Positions 1,815 to 36,225 of a DNA stretch of 64,000 nt are shown here, in pieces. The DNA lies in the sequence record NC_028881.1. One strand, given 5' to 3'. A model generated the notes under the pieces. That model was not told the DNA's origin. It saw only the letters and a list, made by a program, of their open reading frames with translations, and made no database searches. Each line of letters opens with the position of its first letter. Position 1 is the stretch's first letter. The stretch comes from Escherichia phage vb_EcoM-VR5. A program made the position numbers and the translations under genes.

Positions 1815-3493
1815 TCCATCACCGTGAATCGTCCAACTTTCTTCATCTGAAGATGTTGGCCGTAAGCTTGTGGGTCATGGTCTCGGTGAGAGATAATGAA
1901 CACGTTCGTATCTTCAAGGCTATTCAAGATGGTTGCAATGCTCTTAACGCCTTCAGAGTCAGTTGCACTATCAAACACCTCATCAAGAATTAGTGTAGAT
2001 ATATTAACACCGGATACCTTAGAAGCAATATCACGCCATGTAAAAAGAAGTGCGATATCAATACGTGCTTTCTCACCCTGTGAAAATGAAGCGTAACTAA
2101 AGTCTTCACGTCCACGTGATTTAATCGTCTCATTGAACTCTTCGTCAAGTGTAAAGACGTAGTCGGCTTCCATAATCTTCAAATAAGAATTTATCTGCTT
2201 ATTAAAGATTGGAATGTATTTCTTAATAATGGAACCTTTAATACCGGTATCCTTCAACATTTCTGTTAGAATTCCACGATGATATTTTTCCATTACTAAG
2301 GATGATTTGGTAGAGACGATTTTATCAAGCTCTGCTTGAAGCGTAGCAATCTCTTCGGTATTACTTACGAACTCAGCTGCCGCTTGGTCAATTAATAGCT
2401 TAACCTTTTTAGCTTTCTCTACAGCAGTAACAGCTTGTTGTTTATGGGTAGCTATCTGGGATTTAATAGCCAACGCTTTATTGCGTTGTTCGGTTACTTG
2501 GTCTTTAATGAGCTTGAGTTCTTGGTATTGCTCATTAATCTTATCTAAAGATTTTTGAAGCTCAAAGTTTTTATCCTTAATTTTAGTAAGGATGTTTCCG
2601 TGCTCTTCTAACCCTTGCATACACGTAGGGCAGTGACCACCTGTTTCATAAAGCTTAACCACCTTTGTAAAGGTAGCCATATCATTTTTGATTGCAAATC
2701 CTTTATTACTCAGGTCACTCATGGAGTCGCTAGGGTCATCATCCACGATGACATTGAGTAATTCATCAGTTAGTTTTTCTATGTTGCTCTTGGCAGTCCT
2801 GGCTTCTTTAACTAGCTCGTCATACATTAACTGTAGCCGTGCTGCATTTTCGCCTGACAATTTACGTTGACGTTCTTCGTTGTCATTATAAATTTTAATT
2901 TGTTGGGTAATAGAATCTTGTTTAACGTCTATTACTTGGATTTGGCTATTGGTCTCGCGAATCAAAGATTTGTTCAACTTATCCATATCCGCTAATACGG
3001 AAACCTCTAAGAGATCTTCGACGAGTTTTCTTCTTGCAGGAGTGGATAGGCCCATAAAAGGGGTATATCCAGCTGTGCCGAGTACGACAATCTGTTTGAA
3101 GCTTGCATAGGACATTCCGATAAGCTGTTCAAATTCTGCTTGGAAGTCTTTACTGCTGGCAGATTCATTAAGACGTTCACCGCCACAAGAGATTTCAAAA
3201 ACATTGGGTTTTTGCCCACGTTTGATATAGTATTCTTTGCCATCGTATTCCATCCACAATTCGACCAAAAGGTCTTTTTTATTACTCGAGTTAATCAACT
3301 GGCCTTTCTTAACGTCACGAAAAGGCTTACCAAACAAAGCAAATGTAACGGCTTCAAGGAATGTTGATTTCCCTGCACCATTTTTACCAGTGACTAAGGT
3401 CTTTTGGACCTTGTCAAGTTCTACAGTAATAGCCTGCTGCCCTACCGACATAATATTTTTATACGTTACTTTCTTTAACTTAAAAGTCTTCAT
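1811..3493 (-). CDS. 46: recombination endonuclease subunit gp46 (SbcC/Rad50-like ATPase)
   Basis: Start trimmed to second ATG (MKTFKLKKVTYKNIMSVGQ...), 560 aa; Walker A GKNGAGKST; CxxC zinc hook CPTCMQ; C-terminal LILDEVF...FIISHRDH; collinear with T4 gp46. Confidence 0.92.
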   Translation of the reverse strand: MKTFKLKKVTYKNIMSVGQQAITVELDKVQKTLVTGKNGAGKSTFLEAVTFALFGKPFRDVKKGQLINSSNKKDLLVELWMEYDGKEYYIKRGQKPNVFEISCGGERLNESASSKDFQAEFEQLIGMSYASFKQIVVLGTAGYTPFMGLSTPARRKLVEDLLEVSVLADMDKLNKSLIRETNSQIQVIDVKQDSITQQIKIYNDNEERQRKLSGENAARLQLMYDELVKEARTAKSNIEKLTDELLNVIVDDDPSDSMSDLSNKGFAIKNDMATFTKVVKLYETGGHCPTCMQGLEEHGNILTKIKDKNFELQKSLDKINEQYQELKLIKDQVTEQRNKALAIKSQIATHKQQAVTAVEKAKKVKLLIDQAAAEFVSNTEEIATLQAELDKIVSTKSSLVMEKYHRGILTEMLKDTGIKGSIIKKYIPIFNKQINSYLKIMEADYVFTLDEEFNETIKSRGREDFSYASFSQGEKARIDIALLFTWRDIASKVSGVNISTLILDEVFDSATDSEGVKSIATILNSLEDTNVFIISHRDHDPQAYGQHLQMKKVGRFTVME

Positions 3494-23522: not shown

Positions 23523-24062
23523 TTAATATACCGCCTCAAACATCTTTTTAGATTTTAGGTAATTGGCCTTTTCTAGAACTTCCGAAGCATATTTACTACC
23601 TGCTTTGGCATTCCAGCCCGCATTATAAGAAGCAATCGCTTTTCTCAGGTCACCTTTGTGAACATTAATCCAATACGACAGTTCAATGTAGGCCCAAGAG
23701 GCACTGTTCTGTCGGTTTTGGACCATACGAATTATTTCTTTATCCGACATCTTCCAACCTACCTGTTTAACACGACTTCTTAACGTAGGCAAGTAATTTT
23801 GGAACATGCCATAAGCATGGTGCTTATCTTTATTTAAACCTTGATTAATCCCAGCAGATGATTCCTGCCATAATAATCCGGCCATTATATATCCTAATCC
23901 TTTTTGATTAGGGGTTTCTTTGAACTTTCCCGACTTTTGGTATTGTTCACCGAAAGCATACGCGTAATGTAAATTATCGAGTTGTTCATTACTGAAAGTA
24001 GGCTCTACGCTATAGGCAGACATACTAACTGTCAATAGTAAAGTGGCTAATACTTTTTTCAT
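23523..24062 (-). CDS. exported lytic-transglycosylase-like protein (SLT-type)
   Basis: 179 aa; signal peptide MKKVLATLLLTVSMSAYS; LLWQESSAG...AYGMFQ resembles the SLT catalytic E-S and GLMQ motifs. Confidence 0.45.
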   Translation of the reverse strand: MKKVLATLLLTVSMSAYSVEPTFSNEQLDNLHYAYAFGEQYQKSGKFKETPNQKGLGYIMAGLLWQESSAGINQGLNKDKHHAYGMFQNYLPTLRSRVKQVGWKMSDKEIIRMVQNRQNSASWAYIELSYWINVHKGDLRKAIASYNAGWNAKAGSKYASEVLEKANYLKSKKMFEAVY

Positions 24063-24074
24063 GAGACCTCATTA

Positions 24075-24533
24075 TTAAAGATAGATTACTTTCGTGCTAG
24101 TTTTACCTTCTAAACGTTTAGAGTTAACAAATGCCATACGACATTTTAATGAATATCCTTTATCAGGATGTTTACGATCTACAGTCATACCTAACCATAA
24201 GGTTTTATCGGTAATCTCGAGACGCAGTGGACGATACACTTTACCTGGGACAATTTCAGATTCTACATCAGGCAGAGGTTCCTGGATTAAAAATTCATGG
24301 ATTTCTTTAACATGGTTATGGAGTTGCTTGAATAAAGCAAAAACGTATTTTTCGTCAATTTCACGTTGGATAGCACGGTCCAATAGGTGATTAGAGTACT
24401 TAATAAAGAAAGCTGGGACTCCACTCTTAATGGCGGCTTTTTTGATGGATGTATTCAGTTCACGAAATTCGGTTTCGAACTGACGACGTAATTTGTTGCG
24501 GCGGATGAATACTTCTGAATTAATTTCTGACAT
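24075..24533 (-). CDS. regB: RegB site-specific endoribonuclease
   Basis: 152 aa; EVFIRRNKLRRQFETEFRELN...HLLDRAIQREIDEKYVF... is collinear with T4 RegB (153 aa). Confidence 0.85.
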   Translation of the reverse strand: MSEINSEVFIRRNKLRRQFETEFRELNTSIKKAAIKSGVPAFFIKYSNHLLDRAIQREIDEKYVFALFKQLHNHVKEIHEFLIQEPLPDVESEIVPGKVYRPLRLEITDKTLWLGMTVDRKHPDKGYSLKCRMAFVNSKRLEGKTSTKVIYL

Positions 24534-24540
24534 TTTGTTT

Positions 24541-24590
24541 CTCCTGTAGTTGATAGGTTTATAGTATCATGCCTACAGGAGATGTAAACT
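24541..24590 (-). promoter_or_regulatory. PeSL-like promoter/stem-loop cassette upstream of regB, approximate
   Basis: ttgataggtttatagtatca between perfect inverted repeat ctcctgtag/ctacaggag, then gtaaac. Confidence 0.7.
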
Positions 24591-24593
24591 GCT

Positions 24594-24803
24594 TTATTCT
24601 TGGAATGGTGTGAGTTTTCCAGCTATCGAACAAATTTCTACCATTGCAGGATAAAACTCTTTCACTTGTTCAAGGCGCTGGACAGCGTACCGCATTTCGC
24701 CTTCTTCAAGACAAGCCACTTGGTCATCGAGCAAATATTTGTGGTAACCAGTACAGGCTTCACTAATGATACGTTGGAATTCTTGCAAACTTTCAATTTT
24801 CAC
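24594..24803 (-). CDS. hypothetical small protein (T4 vs.3 position)
   Basis: 69 aa ORF. Confidence 0.35.
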   Translation of the reverse strand: MKIESLQEFQRIISEACTGYHKYLLDDQVACLEEGEMRYAVQRLEQVKEFYPAMVEICSIAGKLTPFQE

Positions 24804-25066
24804 TAGTATTTTTCCTCAGGTCGAAATACTGCACGACATGCCCACATGCTGGCTTCTTTTAGATGTTGCTTAGCATACTTAAGAGCCTGCACTGCATCCA
24901 TATCTTCTTTGGTTTGTTGCTCGGTTTCATTTTCTTTAAAGATATATGCTTCTTCAATCAGAGCATCAAACATCAATCCAAGACGGACTTCTGCATCTTT
25001 AATAGCGTTCACTTTACCGATTTTATCGTCGGTATGTGGCTTGTAACCTTTGATATCTTCAATCAT
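24803..25066 (-). CDS. hypothetical small helical protein (T4 vs.4 / Acb2 position, by synteny only)
   Basis: 87 aa; second gene past regB toward denV, where T4 carries vs.4. Confidence 0.35.
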   Translation of the reverse strand: MIEDIKGYKPHTDDKIGKVNAIKDAEVRLGLMFDALIEEAYIFKENETEQQTKEDMDAVQALKYAKQHLKEASMWACRAVFRPEEKY

Positions 25067-25320
25067 TTCACTTCCTCACCTGTTGCAATATCATATTCAA
25101 CTAAACGAAGACCATCTGTCCACCCTTGAACAGAGATATAGGTGGTCGGGTAAACCAGTTCTTTACCATTCCACTGACCGCCGTCCCAAACTTCTAGAAA
25201 GCTTTGTTCGCCTGGTCCATTAAACCATTCAACGAATCTTTTCAAGGCTGCATCAGAGCCTTCGATCGTCAGTTTAGACATATTTTTTCCAGTCATTAAC
25301 CATACGAACCTCTTGGTCAT
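25063..25320 (-). CDS. hypothetical Trp-rich small protein
   Basis: 85 aa ORF. Confidence 0.35.
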   Translation of the reverse strand: MTKRFVWLMTGKNMSKLTIEGSDAALKRFVEWFNGPGEQSFLEVWDGGQWNGKELVYPTTYISVQGWTDGLRLVEYDIATGEEVK

Positions 25321-25570
25321 ATGTCAGGAGGCTACGAGTTATAATACCCTTACACGGTCCTGAGATGAACTCGAGAGTGAAGTAAGGAACCTGTTTCATT
25401 AATCGGATACTTGGAGCATGGCATCTAAAACGAGAGCCCGTAAAGGGCCCTGACATGAACACGTATTCTAATGGGTAGAAATAAGCATATTCAAAATTTA
25501 TAGTAAGGTCTTCTCTTCGAACCTTACGTGAGAAATAGCAGAACTCAAAAAGCTCTTCATCAGTCATCAT
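25274..25570 (-). CDS. hypothetical protein
   Basis: 98 aa ORF; overlaps neighbours on both sides. Confidence 0.3.
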   Translation of the reverse strand: MMTDEELFEFCYFSRKVRREDLTINFEYAYFYPLEYVFMSGPFTGSRFRCHAPSIRLMKQVPYFTLEFISGPCKGIITRSLLTYDQEVRMVNDWKKYV

Positions 25571-26094
25571 TGCATTCCTATCACAAAGAACAAGGGCAGA
25601 GGTTTATTACCTTGGCACATAAATTTATTCATCATTACCTGGTAAGCTTCATAGAACTTATCCATCGCTGGAAGTCGCATAGGCTCTTCGATAATAATCA
25701 ATAATCGAGTAACAGATAATCCACGATACTTATGGAAGTTATCTTCGTCTAAAAATGAACGAACGGTATCATAGGCGATAAATCCAGGGCGTTCTACTTG
25801 AAGATGTGGTTGTGCCTTAGAAACCTGTTTTATTACATTACAGATTTCTCGTGAGCGATGTGAAGAACTTGACATAACAATAACATCATTACCCTTAGAG
25901 ACCCAATCAGCTGCGAACTGGGCAAGGGCACTTGTTTTACCTGTTTGACGACCGCCATCAAGCCTAAGAGTACCAAACTCTTGCATTCTTGAAGTGGGTT
26001 CATACCAGGTGTATTGGTCTGAGTCTAAACGTTCAATGGCGCGTTCAGCGAAGGCGTGCATTAAGGTTAGATAAATTGGAGTTAAAAATTTCAT
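25567..26094 (-). CDS. small P-loop NTPase
   Basis: 175 aa; Walker A DGGRQTGKTSA and Walker-B-like LLIIIEEP. Confidence 0.5.
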   Translation of the reverse strand: MKFLTPIYLTLMHAFAERAIERLDSDQYTWYEPTSRMQEFGTLRLDGGRQTGKTSALAQFAADWVSKGNDVIVMSSSSHRSREICNVIKQVSKAQPHLQVERPGFIAYDTVRSFLDEDNFHKYRGLSVTRLLIIIEEPMRLPAMDKFYEAYQVMMNKFMCQGNKPLPLFFVIGMQ

Positions 26095-26226
26095 AGTTGT
26101 CTCTTAGTAGGGGCCATTCCTTGGCACATAATTCATCCCTTTCTGCATTTACCCATTACCGCACTTGGGCTCGACCTTATTACAGGTTGGTGGGAGTCCC
26201 TCAGTATTGAGGTCCAGGTTGCTCCC
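26095..26226 (-). other. GC-rich structured intergenic element downstream of denV; likely gene-end remnant (approximate)
   Basis: Hairpins CCUCA-AUAC-UGAGG and GCCA-AGGAA-UGGC; segment ccttggcacataattcatcc repeats the 3' coding end of 25567..26094 (ccttggcacataaatttattcatc); homologous to the element at 27008-27140. Confidence 0.45.
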
Positions 26227-26643
26227 TTATGCATAAATCGCCTTACTGTAATATTTATACCAGGTAGGGCGTTGTGCAATTTTTTCGTCTAAACGGGCCT
26301 GTGATATAACGATAGAAGCTTCATGGGGGATATAATCACCACGGAATTCCTGAGGAATATCACTAATATCCTGGACTGTAGTATCCTTGATATTAAACCC
26401 ACGTTTTAGACATTCGTCTATAAGCTCAATTTGACGTTTACGTAAGAACTCGAGCTTATCGTAAAAGAATGTAACATGACCTGTGCCAAGGATAAAAGTA
26501 GGACTGATTTTAAAATCACGAACCCGTTTACCATTAGCAACATGCTTACGAACTGCACCAAAAACACGTGGTAATTCACGATATTCGGCCATTAAGTGTT
26601 GGTCAGCCAATTCAGATACTAAAGTAAGGTTGATACGAGTCAT
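26227..26643 (-). CDS. denV: endonuclease V (pyrimidine-dimer DNA glycosylase) DenV
   Basis: 138 aa; [53 protein letters not shown]... is essentially identical to my recollection of T4 DenV. Confidence 0.95.
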
Positions 26644-26649
26644 TTTAAT

Positions 26650-26699
26650 CTCCTGTAGTTGATAGGTCTATAGTATCATACCTACAGGAGATGTAAACT
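26650..26699 (-). promoter_or_regulatory. PeSL-like promoter/stem-loop cassette upstream of denV, approximate
   Basis: Consensus 20-mer ttgataggtctatagtatca between perfect inverted repeat ctcctgtag/ctacaggag, then gtaaac. Confidence 0.7.
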
Positions 26700-26707
26700 A
26701 CTATGAA

Positions 26708-27007
26708 CTAGAAAGAACCAGAGCCTTTAATTGTGTTCTGGCGTCCTTTATTTTCTACTTCAGAGTGGTCGATTTCGTAAGCTTGTGCTACACCAAAGGA
26801 TTTTTTAATTTTGGCCAACGACCCTTTAGAAATAACAATGTTAAAGGTATTGCCTTTAGAAAAATCTACCAAATCTACAGTAACGCCGTTATTGGTTAAA
26901 CTATTAACAATAGCATCAACATATTGTTGGTCTAAAGTTCCCTGAACGCCGATTTGAAAAGCTTTAGGTGCTTTAGCTTCAGTGATAAATTCTTGATATG
27001 TTTTCAT
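26708..27007 (-). CDS. ipII: internal protein with capsid-targeting sequence (IPII-like)
   Basis: 99 aa; N-terminal MKTYQEFITEA is the T4 capsid-targeting sequence; size and position (between denV and ipIII) match T4 IPII. Confidence 0.6.
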   Translation of the reverse strand: MKTYQEFITEAKAPKAFQIGVQGTLDQQYVDAIVNSLTNNGVTVDLVDFSKGNTFNIVISKGSLAKIKKSFGVAQAYEIDHSEVENKGRQNTIKGSGSF

Positions 27008-27140
27008 TTCAAATCCTAGCTGGTTTTAATTAAAAGCCATTCCGTGGCTCATTAGTTAAGGTTAATCCCTTCCTGCAGTACCTGTTCGAGTGCTCGGGCC
27101 CTCCTCATAGAGGTTAGACCCTGTTAGACTTTATTAGGAA
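27008..27140 (-). other. GC-rich structured intergenic element between ipIII and ipII (approximate)
   Basis: Hairpins CCUC-UAU-GAGG and GCCA-CGGAA-UGGC plus conserved GCAGGAAGGGAU block; homologous to the element at 26095-26226. Confidence 0.45.
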
Positions 27141-27710
27141 TTAACGGGCTGCATTAGCAACAGCGTAAGCGTACTGAATATTAGCGTCTTTAAACTTACC
27201 TTTAGAGGTATCTATTTCTGCCTTAAAGCCGCCTTTAGTCATAACATCGGCAAATTCTTTACGGAAAGCCATTGCATCAAGACCTTTCCATGATGATTTA
27301 TGCTTGGCAAATTCAAGACCTGCGAAGTTGACAGCTTTAGCCAATTTATTATCAATAGCCCATTTACCGGCTTTAGGCACAAACTTCGGGCCCTTCTGTT
27401 TAGAGAACAGTTTTAAATTCCAGCGGCGAAGGTCCGAATCAGCTTTAACAAATTCGGAGTCTAAATTACTAGCAACAACATCGTCAATATGAGCGAATTT
27501 AAGTCCGTCAACTTCAATATTTAGGTCGTTACGCCAGCGAAGTCCTTCCCAGGCGAAAGCTTTAAAGTCAGAAGCTTTTGTAGCTAAGTACCGTTCAATA
27601 GGAGCTGTTTTAGCGTCAAAACCGTTTCCTCGGTAGGTCCACTCATCTTTGTTAATGCCTTGGGCTTTTCCTACAGAAGCTTCGGCGATAAATTCTTTAT
27701 ATGTTTTCAT
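27141..27710 (-). CDS. ipIII: internal protein with capsid-targeting sequence (IPIII-like)
   Basis: 189 aa; N-terminal MKTYKEFIAEA; size and position (immediately upstream of e) match T4 IPIII (193 aa). Confidence 0.6.
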   Translation of the reverse strand: MKTYKEFIAEASVGKAQGINKDEWTYRGNGFDAKTAPIERYLATKASDFKAFAWEGLRWRNDLNIEVDGLKFAHIDDVVASNLDSEFVKADSDLRRWNLKLFSKQKGPKFVPKAGKWAIDNKLAKAVNFAGLEFAKHKSSWKGLDAMAFRKEFADVMTKGGFKAEIDTSKGKFKDANIQYAYAVANAAR

Positions 27711-27798
27711 GTGTTTCCTTTAAATATTTTAATTAGCGATTTGACTGTTTAAGTAACTGTGAATATAGTATCATGACCACAGATCAAAGTAAACAAAT

Positions 27799-28293
27799 TT
27801 ATAGATTTTTATACGCGTCCCAAGTGCCAGTTCTAAACGTTGCAATGACTCGCTTAGCTCGGTTGGGGGTCTGTTTGTACCAACGAGATTGCGCTAGGTT
27901 AACTGCGGCCTCATCCCAACGTTTTTGTTGGAGCATACGAAGAGAGTTAGTAAATCCTGCTACACCAGCTTCACCCATTTGGAAGACCATATTAATTAGT
28001 GCGCAACGACGAACTTCGTCAAGCACATCATAAACAGGTTTCAATTTAGGATTACGCAAAATAGCCCTACGAGCATTTTCCACTGAACGATTAAAGAGTT
28101 GTTCTGCTTCAGTCATTGTAATACGACCATTACAAACTCGACCCATAAGTTTATCAAGTTCAGCACGAGCAACATCTTTAGAAGGATTCTTGGTTATCAA
28201 TTGGCCGATGCCAATAGTCCAATAACCTTCGGTGTCTTTATAAAGATTTAAATCAAGACCTTCGTCTTGACGTAACATATCAAAAATATCCAT
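27799..28293 (-). CDS. e: endolysin (T4 lysozyme, gene e)
   Basis: 164 aa; [35 protein letters not shown]...[44 protein letters not shown]...[10 protein letters not shown], collinear with T4 lysozyme including catalytic E11/D20/T26. Confidence 0.95.
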
Positions 28294-28294
28294 A

Positions 28295-28318
28295 ATACCT
28301 CCTGAGTATAGGAGGTAT
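28295..28318 (-). promoter_or_regulatory. leader hairpin sequestering the gene e Shine-Dalgarno (approximate)
   Basis: Window palindrome atacctcct-gagtat-aggaggtat; in RNA sense the SD AGGAGG forms the 3' arm of a 9-bp stem directly before the ATG, as described for T4 gene e early transcripts. Confidence 0.5.
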
Positions 28319-28327
28319 TTATTATTC

Positions 28328-28777
28328 TTAGAACATTGAGCTCAGAACCTTATACATCGACTGGCCCATGACATATTCCCATTGTGGACGTTTAATCAAG
28401 GCGAAAGCATCGAACTCAGGAATACTACGACCGTCAGGGAACGTATGATAAGCCGTACATTTGCAATTCTTGAACTGCTCGTGTTCCACAGGCACAGTAT
28501 ATAAGAACAGGTGTAGATTCTTATTGCTGGAATATTTGAACTCACCTAGGTCTTTCAGGAACGCAGGGTCATATGCAGTGAATCCAATCTCTTCTTCGGT
28601 TTCACGCATAGCAGCTTGGATAGGCTCTTCACCTGATTCAACATGACCTTTAGGAATGTCCCATTTATGACGCATATTCTCTGGATTACGAGAACCTGTT
28701 ACACGACCCATGACTAGTTCTTTATCAACGGTCATGAACAAAATACCAGCGGATAATTCTTTAACTTTCTTACTCAT
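28328..28777 (-). CDS. nudE: Nudix hydrolase NudE
   Basis: Track ORF 28328..28906 trimmed to internal ATG ([14 protein letters not shown]...), 149 aa; Nudix box [23 protein letters not shown]; adjacent to e as in T4. Confidence 0.8.
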
Positions 28778-29006
28778 AATCACGTTCCCAAGATTTTTTA
28801 AAGATTTCGGCCATAATAATTTCAATGCGTGTTTCTGTTGAAGGAGATTCACTATCAGAAGTTTGAACTCTGTATTCAGAAATCGGGCGTAACAAGTCCA
28901 GGTCAATTTCTAAATCATCTTTGATTTCAACTTCAGGCGTACCTTTATCATAGGAATACAGGTAAGAATCACATGACTCTGATTTAATATAAATTGCAAT
29001 ACTCAT
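28770..29006 (-). CDS. hypothetical acidic protein
   Basis: 78 aa ORF. Confidence 0.35.
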   Translation of the reverse strand: MSIAIYIKSESCDSYLYSYDKGTPEVEIKDDLEIDLDLLRPISEYRVQTSDSESPSTETRIEIIMAEIFKKSWERDYE

Positions 29007-29596
29007 TTACGACATTCCTCAATAAAATCATTTAAGTTCTTTTTAGTTTTACCTTCGTCATAAAGACGTTGTTGACGACGTAAACGCCATGGCATTTCAA
29101 TAGCCAGACACCAGATACTTAAGGCAACGCCTGCGGTAAAAAGGTTCATTAACCCGGCGCCAATAATGGTTCGTTCTAACGCATCATTCCAGTTTACATC
29201 AATTAAAAACGAGCTCAGCACTAGCATCGGAAGTAAAGTAATAAGATATGCCACTACATATCGTCCAAACGTAAGCCATTCGGTATCAATGAGCTTTGCC
29301 TTTCCATCTTGGAAGCAAATATACTTATCGTCAGTGCGAGTAATTTTCTTTGCAGGTTGCCAGCCATTTACAATATAACCCATTTTATATTCCTCAATTA
29401 AAAGCTCTTTCATATGACGGTTACAATGCGACCAATCTACTGTACTAGCTGCAATTCCTTCATCACCATCATCAAGATTTCGCCAGGACTTTTTAATAAC
29501 CATATTTTCACCGCTTGGTACAATGATTCCGGCGTTTTCAGAACGACGGACGAAGTTCACATCTAGGCCCATACATCCGGGTTCATAAAGAGCCAT
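29003..29596 (-). CDS. membrane protein with C-terminal FIEECRK tail
   Basis: 197 aa; hydrophobic helices in the C-terminal half; ends ...KNLNDFIEECRK, a motif shared with 33817..34353 and 33471..33824. Confidence 0.45.
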   Translation of the reverse strand: MALYEPGCMGLDVNFVRRSENAGIIVPSGENMVIKKSWRNLDDGDEGIAASTVDWSHCNRHMKELLIEEYKMGYIVNGWQPAKKITRTDDKYICFQDGKAKLIDTEWLTFGRYVVAYLITLLPMLVLSSFLIDVNWNDALERTIIGAGLMNLFTAGVALSIWCLAIEMPWRLRRQQRLYDEGKTKKNLNDFIEECRK

Positions 29597-30282
29597 TACC
29601 AGCCCTCCATAGGGAATTCAAGATAAACTTGAGCATTGACACGGATTTCATTGGTAATATTTTTAACACGGTCAGTGTTACGAGATACACGTCCAAACCA
29701 GCGCCATCCATTACTTACCGTACGAGAACCGGTATGCCAGGTTTGCCAATCAAACTGCAAGAGTGTACGGTCTGGAGCTTCCCACTGTTCCAATTCACCT
29801 GATTCAATTTTAGCCAAGACTTCTTTGTGCCATTGGCGATAAATCAATTCACCTTCCGGGATTTCACTAAAGGTAGCTTCACCGGTAGCAAAATGGGTAG
29901 GACACACATCAGCGTTAACAAGACCAAGAATGTGTTCAGACAAATAGCGAGGATTGTCATAATCAGGTTGTCCTGCAGTAATAAAATGTTGGCCTGTTGG
30001 AATAGGTGGACGAGGAACATCGTCATGGTGATAACCTGGGATAGCCGGATACCAGCCTGGCATCAACATATGCACACGCGAATCAAACACTACTTGGTCA
30101 TTGTTCCAATCATCAGGCAAGTTCATAATAAAAGAGCGTGTAATACGGTCACCGTTATTATAAGCAAATTCTAAACTACAGTTGAAGAACATCGGTTCGT
30201 TCTTGATTTTATCATTAGAAATACCGCCAGCAAAACCACCTACTGCACGAGCTTGACTATTAAAAGTTTTAGGACCGTTCAT
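29596..30282 (-). CDS. hypothetical protein (228 aa)
   Basis: Track ORF 29596..30366 trimmed to internal ATG (MNGPKTFNSQARAVGG...); His/Asp-rich stretch GYHHDDVP. Confidence 0.45.
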   Translation of the reverse strand: MNGPKTFNSQARAVGGFAGGISNDKIKNEPMFFNCSLEFAYNNGDRITRSFIMNLPDDWNNDQVVFDSRVHMLMPGWYPAIPGYHHDDVPRPPIPTGQHFITAGQPDYDNPRYLSEHILGLVNADVCPTHFATGEATFSEIPEGELIYRQWHKEVLAKIESGELEQWEAPDRTLLQFDWQTWHTGSRTVSNGWRWFGRVSRNTDRVKNITNEIRVNAQVYLEFPMEGW

Positions 30283-35941: not shown

Positions 35942-36017
35942 TGGTCGAGACAGTAGGGATCGAACCTACGACCTAGGACTTAGAAGGTCCTTGCTCTTCC
36001 TTCTGAGCTATGCCTCG
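35942..36017 (-). tRNA. tRNA-Arg (anticodon TCT, reads AGA); approximate coordinates
   Basis: Hand-folded: acceptor CGAGGCA/TGTCTCG, D arm GCTC/GAGC, anticodon stem AGGAC/GTCCT with loop CTTCTAA, T arm GTAGG-TTCGATC-CCTAC, encoded ACCA end. Confidence 0.75.
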
Positions 36018-36023
36018 TGTTTG

Positions 36024-36150
36024 TTCATAGCGGGGTGGACTCGAACCACCAATATTAAGTCACTCATGCTCCAAGCATGCTAGGGCACTTACCCCGGACG
36101 GAATCGAACCGCATCTACAATACCTATCGCCATGATAATTTAAAATAAGT
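36024..36150 (-). other. tRNA-like fragments / possible small stable RNA between the two tRNAs (approximate)
   Basis: Two T-arm-like motifs (RNA GGUGG-UUCGAGU-CCACC and GCGG-UUCGAUU-CCGU) only about 62-66 nt apart, plus hairpin CAUGCU-UGG-AGCAUG; no full cloverleaf could be folded by hand. Confidence 0.3.
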
Positions 36151-36151
36151 T

Positions 36152-36225
36152 TGGTGGCCCTGGGTGGAATCGAACCACCATCCAGCGATTATGAGTCGCT
36201 CGCTTGACCGTCCAGCTACAGGGCC
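36152..36225 (-). tRNA. tRNA with CAT anticodon (Met, or Ile2-type reading AUA as in T4); approximate coordinates
   Basis: Hand-folded: acceptor GGCCCTG/CAGGGCC, anticodon stem AGCGA/TCGCT with loop CTCATAA, T arm GGTGG-TTCGATT-CCACC, encoded ACCA end. Confidence 0.7.

Follow-up and report, generated by a model that had tools for sequence, protein, structure and literature searches.

The 64,000-nt stretch of Escherichia phage vb_EcoM-VR5 considered here (record NC_028881.1; hereafter the window, in which all positions are counted) carries, in the spacer between denV and a homologue of the T4 gene vs.8, a folded non-coding RNA of the sense strand that is conserved far beyond the T4-like phages. 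We refer to this spacer as element A (26226-26095, minus strand). A second spacer on the same strand, element B (27140-27008), lies between ipIII and an internal-protein (IP) gene and, judged by its sequence, is a decayed second copy (paralogue) of the same RNA element. The initial annotation, which placed both spacers correctly, described them as either decayed gene ends or conserved structured RNA elements. The second description is strongly borne out for A, which is matched in approximately 1,000 phage genomes and shows compensatory base changes, and finds no support for B. Conservation and covariation, whose joint absence was to have counted against the proposal, are both present in A.

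The architecture of A consists of a structured domain followed by a 3' tail, with the following features:

26226-26143, minus strand: structured domain, made up of helix Pa, pseudoknot helix P0, hairpin P1 and the three-way junction P2-P3-P4
26226-26192, minus strand: 5' domain, in which Pa encloses P1
26226-26222 (GGGAG) with 26196-26192 (CUCCC), minus strand: helix Pa
26217-26215 (CUG) with 26145-26143 (CAG), minus strand: pseudoknot helix P0, which crosses Pa
26212-26208 (CCUCA) with 26203-26199 (UGAGG), minus strand: hairpin P1
26190-26153, minus strand: three-way-junction core, with P2 CCA/UGG, P3 ACCU(GUAAUA)AGGU, junction strand CGA, P4 GC(CCAAGU)GC and junction strand GGUAA
26142-26095, minus strand: 3' tail, AGGGAUGA, read from the sequence
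26125-26113, minus strand: hairpin GCCA-AGGAA-UGGC within the tail
26105-26100, minus strand: Shine-Dalgarno-like AAGAGA within the tail, before the vs.8 start at 26094

A contains the conserved core of the motif (CCUGURNNAAGG-YC(N)A-P4-CGGUAA, closed by P2) together with the periphery of the T4-like copies (Pa, P1 and P0). The core pattern matches exactly at 26156-26178, once in the window and in none of 100 shuffles. The core covariance model (R1) gives 68.7 bits (E = 1e-17) at 26142-26200, which is its sole match in the window. A second covariance model (R2), made from other T4-like subtypes only, with A and its subtype excluded, gives 62.3 bits (E = 4e-14) at 26138-26231, and its alignment places GGGAG/CUCCC of the window on Pa and CUG...CAG on the columns of P0. 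In T4-like phages, the fold as modelled is compact and spans approximately 85-110 nt, with Pa, P1 and P0 packed around a 38-nt junction that has about 16 invariant bases.

Across the family, the core consensus is [P2 5']-N-CCU-GURRNA-AGG-N'-C(N)A-[P4 hairpin]-GGUAA-[P2 3']. Covariation was assessed in a MAFFT alignment of 66 distinct copies, in which 16 columns are invariant and the helices vary by exchange of whole base pairs:

P2 closing pair: AU in 30 copies, UA in 19, CG in 8, UG in 7 and GC in 2; unpaired in none
P3 closing pair: AU in 62 copies, GC in 3 and CG in 1; unpaired in none
P4 second pair: CG in 48 copies, UA in 14 and GC in 2; unpaired in 2, which are alignment slips

The covariation score of the core is 0.247, compared to 0.097±0.010 in shuffles, and its pairing is 81%, a value that falls to 25-54% once the partners are slid. 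For 24 full-length T4-like sequences, the corresponding score is 0.304 (0.096 for shuffles), with 94.9% of cells paired (19-48% with the partners slid). Compensatory changes occur in five of the six helices of the A-type RNA, the pseudoknot included, and helix P1 and the 3' tail have no informative variation. P0, of 3-4 base pairs, occurs with the pair sets CCG/CGG, CGC/GCG, CAC/GUG, CUG/CAG and UCG/CGA; both sides have changed at all four of its pairs (alignment columns 17-20/114-117), and its middle pair is CG in 14 sequences, AU in 4, UA in 4 and GC in 2, with none unpaired. Pa has the form GGGAR/YUCCC in T4 and the window (GGGAA/UUCCC in T4 versus GGGAG/CUCCC in the window), and AAAGG/CCUUU, AAAGC/GCUUU or AAAGA/UCUUU in other subtypes; the pair at columns 13-60 is GC in 13, CG in 9 and AU in 1. 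The fold belongs to the transcribed strand, because its G-U pairs (UG7, UG14 and UG10) would read A-C on the other strand.

In Karamvirus/PEi20-like phages, the element occurs as two tandem copies approximately 114 nt apart upstream of vs.8 (L018 5087-5256, L022 9015-9185, L031 1077-1247 and L154 371-513). The second copy has a shorter P4 (GYC-CGC-GRC), and its P3 closing pair has covaried.

Several observations indicate that A is non-coding. The coding alternative takes it either for the remnant of a gene 3' end, as the initial annotation had suggested, or for a true N-terminal extension of vs.8, as in the T4 annotation. In its favour, the RefSeq coding sequence of T4 vs.8 (219 aa) begins at an ATG inside the element, within hairpin P1 of the RNA; a short identity joins A to the 3' end of vs.8 in this phage; and there are weak peptide echoes (KFMCQG versus QFMCHG). 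Against it, the frame through A is closed in the window, ahead of the vs.8 start, and differs between phages; core lengths of 29, 30 and 31 nt all occur, so that length differences do not come in threes; and the substitutions are compensatory, not synonymous. The in-frame reading GMNYVPRNGPY-stop that had been pointed out is literally correct, but other phages do not keep this frame: the conserved 3' nucleotides AUGUGCCAAGGAAUGGCCC yield MCQGMAP, VPRNGP or CAMEWP, depending on the phage, and the tail as a whole, which is where A shares sequence with B, is conserved in its nucleotides among T4-like copies yet is read in three different frames. The reported repeat of about 25 nt from the vs.8 3' coding end is real and shorter than described, with 13 exact bases (TTATGTGCCAAGG), or 17 with one gap, joining 25600-25640 (the vs.8 3' end) to 26113-26130 (the tail of A) on the minus strand (alignment score 27, compared to 15.7±2.1 for shuffles). 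Only Dhakavirus relatives have this match, which T4, S16 and other element-bearing phages lack; it may be a chance identity or a small lineage-specific conversion. We therefore set aside decayed gene ends, given the varying frame, the indels and the lineage-specific match, and we hold any coding explanation to be extremely unlikely.

The T4 copy, which lies between denV and vs.8 (L001 2537-2656, corresponding to NC_000866.4 at about 64,793-64,912), is annotated as approximately the first 40 codons of vs.8. Because the downstream ATG is where the 177-position PHROG profile begins and also where pairwise homology sets in (T4 residue 44), these N-terminal codons are probably an over-extension of the annotation through the RNA. 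One consequence would be a corrected vs.8 annotation. T4 is among the most thoroughly annotated of genomes, and the fold lies there beneath an annotated gene start, matched by no Rfam 15 family and by nothing in the literature that we searched.

The element is widely distributed among phages. A blastn search gave matches to A in 1,061 phage records, T4 among them, and a 40-45-nt core query matched 1,091; the matched records include T4, T2, JS98, S16, CC31, Klebsiella and Vibrio phages, and rV5-like phages. The core also occurs in phages unrelated to T4 (rV5-like myoviruses, a 45-kb coliphage, Vibrio phages and others), always in unannotated intergenic DNA. Pattern scans that demanded the conserved core, and whose picture of family diversity and bacterial absence holds at that stringency, found approximately 60 genuine IMG/VR loci and approximately 40 metagenome contigs (gut, marine and other sources), and the strict pattern had no match in 185,579 bacterial and archaeal genomes. 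Likewise, blastn of 5,426 E. coli genomes gave no match. With both host searches empty, an origin in, or mimicry of, the host was dropped, and by these sequence searches the RNA is apparently restricted to phages.

Comparison with known RNA families gave no match to the element. At the gathering threshold, Rfam 15 (4,227 models) found only two tRNAs in the window, both elsewhere; at E≤10, it found nothing on either A or B within 1.5 kb around them, and it found nothing on the motif at 14 other element loci. ARAGORN and the Rfam tRNA model (RF00005) called no tRNA on the element, the only tRNAs of the window being at 35942-36225. In the literature, searched by gene name, topic and literal sequence, with the older subscription-journal literature outside the search, the element is undescribed; one paper (PMC9391042) concerns the function of ipIII, not the spacer. 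The work also provides a covariance model with which phage genomes can be annotated.

The genomic setting of the element varies between phage groups. Outside the T4-like phages, it is usually found in tRNA clusters, on the tRNA strand: a tRNA lies within 1 kb, always on the same strand, for 38 of the 70 non-T4 copies (0 of 56 T4-like copies), and in L094, an uncultured phage contig, the last tRNA ends 46 nt upstream of the element. The downstream open reading frames (ORFs) are unrelated among the phage groups, a search for a common downstream gene having failed. In rV5-like phages, a sigma-70-like promoter, read from the sequence, lies between the element and the next ORF, while in L035 and L094 a GC-rich, terminator-like hairpin with a U run, recognised by eye, follows within approximately 30 nt. 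In KPV15-like phages and L053, the element stands ahead of an IP gene and vs.8 is without it. Usually, there is a single copy per genome.

A switch for the downstream gene is less likely because that gene varies between phage groups, because, in phages that are not T4-like, the element is found within tRNA operons or immediately ahead of a terminator, and because one copy per genome seems to be enough. We favour, at somewhat better than even confidence when the firm parts are counted in, a stable RNA whose invariant junction engages a conserved partner. A would be transcribed on the minus strand as part of an early denV-vs.8 message, from which a stable RNA species would be released. In this RNA, P3 carries the GURRNA hexaloop, P4 is a very short hairpin, and the invariant GGUAA strand returns into the closing helix P2; the junction would be presented to a protein, an RNA or a small ligand. 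The occurrence of the element in T4-like, rV5-like and unrelated 45-kb phages of enterobacteria and vibrios points to a partner that is shared by these infections. A more specific and rather improbable extension is that an RNA class not yet described, carried by T4 and more than a thousand further virulent phages, has the junction as its active centre. This could be a new self-cleaving ribozyme, or a mimic of the tRNA elbow or of a ribosome site that is co-expressed with the phage tRNAs and has a conserved host factor as its target, for instance a tRNA-processing or tRNA-targeting defence enzyme.

Several points weigh against the favoured reading. All 56 T4-like copies sit in a 5' leader, almost always that of vs.8, which also fits a role in cis, and we infer the stable, trans-acting character of the RNA from genomic context alone. 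The stringency of the pattern scans, given above, limits what they say of diversity and host absence. The shuffle controls overstate significance, because the sequences within a subfamily are closely related; the sounder support comes from the slid-partner controls and from the number of distinct pair types. RNAfold by itself does not recover the covariation structure of A, and the minimum-free-energy folds are unremarkable (z = +0.79 for A and -0.54 for B versus dinucleotide shuffles). Because A and B fold no more stably than shuffles, structure cannot be read from stability, and the structured status of A rests on covariation.

Some of these facts suit a cis-regulatory leader, in which the junction would be an aptamer or a protein operator that senses a ligand or factor and controls translation or read-through of the downstream gene, which in T4-like phages is vs.8 or an internal-protein gene. 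The T4-like copies are all directly upstream of a gene start; in the 3' tail, a conserved hairpin lies 15-25 nt ahead of the start codon and shows GGA in its loop; the order of element, terminator-like hairpin with U run, and ORF in L035 and L094 is a layout typical of attenuating riboswitches; and near-invariant junction bases combined with variable helices are typical of aptamers. The GGA loop also recalls a CsrA-type operator, which we take to be a resemblance of sequence only. This explanation is at odds with the lack of a downstream gene family common to the phage groups, with the promoter that follows the element in rV5-like phages, with the many copies among tRNA genes, and with the KPV15-like vs.8 genes that lack it; in addition, the IP gene of the window retains a copy whose junction is destroyed, and no riboswitch family is matched. 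We consider it rather unlikely, and a stable RNA acting in trans fits better.

The size and conservation of the junction also recall small ribozymes and aptamers. Like the hammerhead ribozyme and the purine-type riboswitch aptamers, the element has three short covarying helices around a near-invariant junction, with a total size of 40-60 nt; it differs in that the defining core sequences of those RNAs are all absent and no Rfam model matches at E≤10. A self-cleaving ribozyme, or a dedicated signal for cleavage of polycistronic early or tRNA transcripts at this point, would accord with this likeness (a small three-way junction of about 40-60 nt with approximately 16 invariant bases, as in hammerhead-type ribozymes), with the presence of the element in tRNA operons, which need processing, and with the tandem copies of the Karamvirus-like phages. 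The known ribozyme models give no match to the element even at E≤10, and no cleavage-site signature could be identified; this reading is quite unlikely.

With regard to the stable RNA that we favour, other small RNAs offer partial parallels. The GURRNA hexaloop keeps U2 and A6 as a T-loop would, which, along with the association with tRNA genes, we presume to be a possible likeness to tRNA-elbow mimics (the tRNA-like domains of YrlA, a bacterial Y-RNA-like RNA, and the distal region of T-box stem I); the element differs from these in having neither an acceptor-like nor an anticodon-like arm, and the tRNA and Y-RNA models are unmatched. The T4 stable RNAs C and D (species 1 and 2; rnaC/rnaD) are likewise small structured phage RNAs of unknown function, located at the end of the tRNA cluster, which is the setting of the motif in rV5-like, 45-kb and many uncultured phages. 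They show no sequence or structure relation to it, R1 finds nothing at rnaC or rnaD, and the T4 motif lies approximately 6 kb away, within an mRNA leader; kinship was rejected, none having been found. Several short likenesses were also dropped (RNase P CR-II, the 16S 530 loop, the hexaloop of the 23S GTPase centre, the twister loop CCCAAG..CGG, 5S rRNA, and the group II intron 5' end GUGCG), because they are coincidences of 6-9 nt that are contradicted by variable positions of the family and the Rfam models are unmatched.

The evidence on B comes from its alignment to A and to full copies of the element in other phages. The shared blocks that had been reported are real: the local alignment of A and B scores 30, compared to 15.1±2.2 for shuffles (maximum 28; 0 of 500 attain 30), and spans UGCAG(A/G)AAGGGAU...AUG(U/A)GCCA(A/C)GGAAUGGC, in the 3' halves of both spacers. 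The hairpins CCUCA..UGAGG (in A), CCUC..GAGG (in B) and GCCA-NGGAA-UGGC (in both) are also present; the last, GCCA-(A/C)GGAA-UGGC in the two tails, has an invariant stem and hence no covariation. The claim of unusual GC richness stands in moderated form, the content being raised (50% in A and 44% in B, compared to 39% in the window) to a moderate degree only. The blocks common to A and B map to the 5' hairpin at the periphery and to the tail at the 3' end; the family-defining conserved core had gone unnoticed, and B is without it. B is divided as follows:

27140-27105, minus strand: 5' part (36 nt), homologous to full copies, UUCCUAAUAAAG...CCUC-UAU-GA, with a hairpin at 27113-27103 that runs two bases past the part
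27104-27053, minus strand: middle part (52 nt), unrelated or heavily diverged in global and local alignments
27052-27013, minus strand: 3' part (40 nt), homologous to full copies, with AUGAGCCACGGAAUGGC (hairpin at 27048-27036), UUUUAAUUAAAAC and CUAGGAU, the alignment stopping at 27013

Against the full copies of L019, L046 and L053, the 5' part has local scores of 28-30 (shuffles 11.5-11.8±2) and the 3' part scores of 29-31 (shuffles 13.4-13.7±2.2), with 0 of 500 shuffles attaining these values in either case. UUGAA at 27012-27008 lies outside the 3' part and precedes the internal-protein start codon at 27007. The middle part replaces approximately 100 nt that in full copies bear the 3' strand of Pa, P2, P3, P4 and the 3' strand of P0, and the junction motif is gone. 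With filters off, R1 (whole window) and R2 (24000-30000) find nothing on B at E≤10, and the core pattern is absent from it at up to 3 mismatches. Neither blastn of B against 50,697 phage records nor an exact search of IMG/VR for its centre gave a match. B thus lacks the core junction, and its flanks are homologous to those of the full copies that KPV15-like phages and L053 carry in this place, ahead of the corresponding internal-protein gene. Because the position is the same, the ends align, the core is absent and no relatives are found, we take B to be the decayed duplicate introduced above.

The window belongs to a T4-like phage of the Dhakavirus/JS98 type, with approximately 88% identity to AnYang, JS10 and T4 over this region. 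The genes around the two elements are all on the minus strand. They are, together with the spacers:

28293-27799, minus strand: e
27710-27141, minus strand: ipIII, upstream of B (phrog_5341, E = 1.5e-115)
27140-27008, minus strand: spacer with element B, between ipIII and the internal-protein gene
27007-26708, minus strand: internal head protein gene (99 aa), downstream of B (phrog_2667)
26643-26227, minus strand: denV (endonuclease V), upstream of A (Pfam PF03013, E = 7e-15)
26226-26095, minus strand: spacer with element A, between denV and the vs.8 homologue
26094-25567, minus strand: vs.8 homologue (175 aa, P-loop motif GGRQTGKT), downstream of A (phrog_1488)

Residues 1-175 of the vs.8 homologue align to positions 1-177 of the 177 in phrog_1488, and it is 39% identical to T4 vs.8 from T4 residue 44 on. 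The gene at 26708-27007, which had been named ipII, is not the orthologue of T4 ipII: only its first 12 residues, the capsid-targeting leader, match that protein, and it belongs to phrog_2667, the internal-protein family that follows the full element in KPV15-like phages. With E for a full element, the gene orders compare as follows:

T4: ipIII-ipII-denV-E-vs.8
JS98: ipIII-ORF132-denV-IP-E-vs.8
AnYang: ipIII-IP-denV-IP-IP-E-vs.8
T2-like: ipIII-E-vs.8
L053: ipIII-E-IP-vs.8
KPV15-like (L019): e-ORF124-E-IP-vs.8, ORF124 having no match to the window proteins
This window: ipIII-B-IP-denV-A-vs.8

Two copies probably arose by recombination of an ipIII-element-IP cassette with a denV-element-vs.8 cassette, after which the redundant copy would have decayed, losing its junction and retaining its ends. 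The ends would be retained because they carry the ipIII stop region and the translation-start region of the IP gene. The earlier suggestion that cassette recombination left a decayed duplicate thus fits B, with the difference that what decayed would be a second copy of the RNA element and not a gene end. The case would illustrate how a redundant copy decays after cassette shuffling in the internal-protein region.

In a further explanation, the element is mainly a recombination module at the DNA level, a patch of homology that shuffles the internal-protein, denV and vs.8 cassettes, and any RNA fold is incidental. It borders variable cassettes, with ipIII, denV or an IP gene on the upstream side and vs.8 or an IP gene on the downstream side; the two copies here flank the IP-denV block, and there is a precedent in the PeSLs, intergenic modules of T4-type phages that consist of an early promoter and a terminator-like hairpin (PMC2839356, PMC4122927). 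PeSLs resemble the element in being conserved intergenic modules of T4-like genomes that adjoin variable cassettes and through which genes can be shuffled. They differ from it in that A and B carry neither an early promoter nor a terminator-like hairpin, and in that the element has a pseudoknotted, covarying fold of several helices that also occurs outside the T4-like phages. A promoter and terminator scan of 25400-28400 found no site in A or B, the sole nearby site being 26697-26670, upstream of denV. Moreover, compensatory changes, G-U pairs included, keep the helices on one strand, and the core is conserved in unrelated phages without IP or vs.8 genes. We regard a DNA-level module as very unlikely; recombination at the element is likely to be a by-product of its conservation.

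Upstream of denV (26644-26707, minus strand) is a unit of PeSL-type appearance, with an early-promoter-like GTTTAC...TACTAT and a long hairpin, CTCCTGTAG...CTACAGGAG. It is almost identical in T4 and has a weak, sub-threshold match to the Rfam family Mu-gpT-DE.

Some minor observations concern individual loci of other phages. Eighteen records named "Campylobacter phage" (approximately 137 kb; H177 and 17 others) carry an rV5-type copy with approximately 87% identity to the coliphage copies, and their host label may deserve checking. In Vibrio phage 184E37-3b, approximately 1.7 kb around the element (L030 690-2438), adjoining a tRNA and an HNH endonuclease, is annotated solely as ORFs of 30-60 aa on both strands; it is probably an island of non-coding RNA mis-annotated as small genes. 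In the 45-kb phages, an enclosing stem GUUGUGAC/GUCACAAC was considered and is doubtful, its bases also being part of neighbouring long hairpins. In viral contigs of 46-70 kb (L010 10400-10740; L008, L013, L020, L024 and L073), the element stands between long hairpins of the form CACAACAG-RUAAKRGCAUUG...CAGUGCYMUUWY-CGUUGUG, at least one of which has an insert with a T-arm-like GCGGUUCGAUUCCGC. These hairpins may be a series of units resembling tRNAs or Y RNAs that escape both ARAGORN and Rfam. Finally, in the tRNA cluster of L094, 46 nt at 3351-3396 (GGGCUUAGAAGCAGCCAUCCUUUAAAGAG) resemble the L11-binding GTPase-associated centre of 23S rRNA, on the basis of an Rfam LSU match that is below threshold (E = 2.6e-4).

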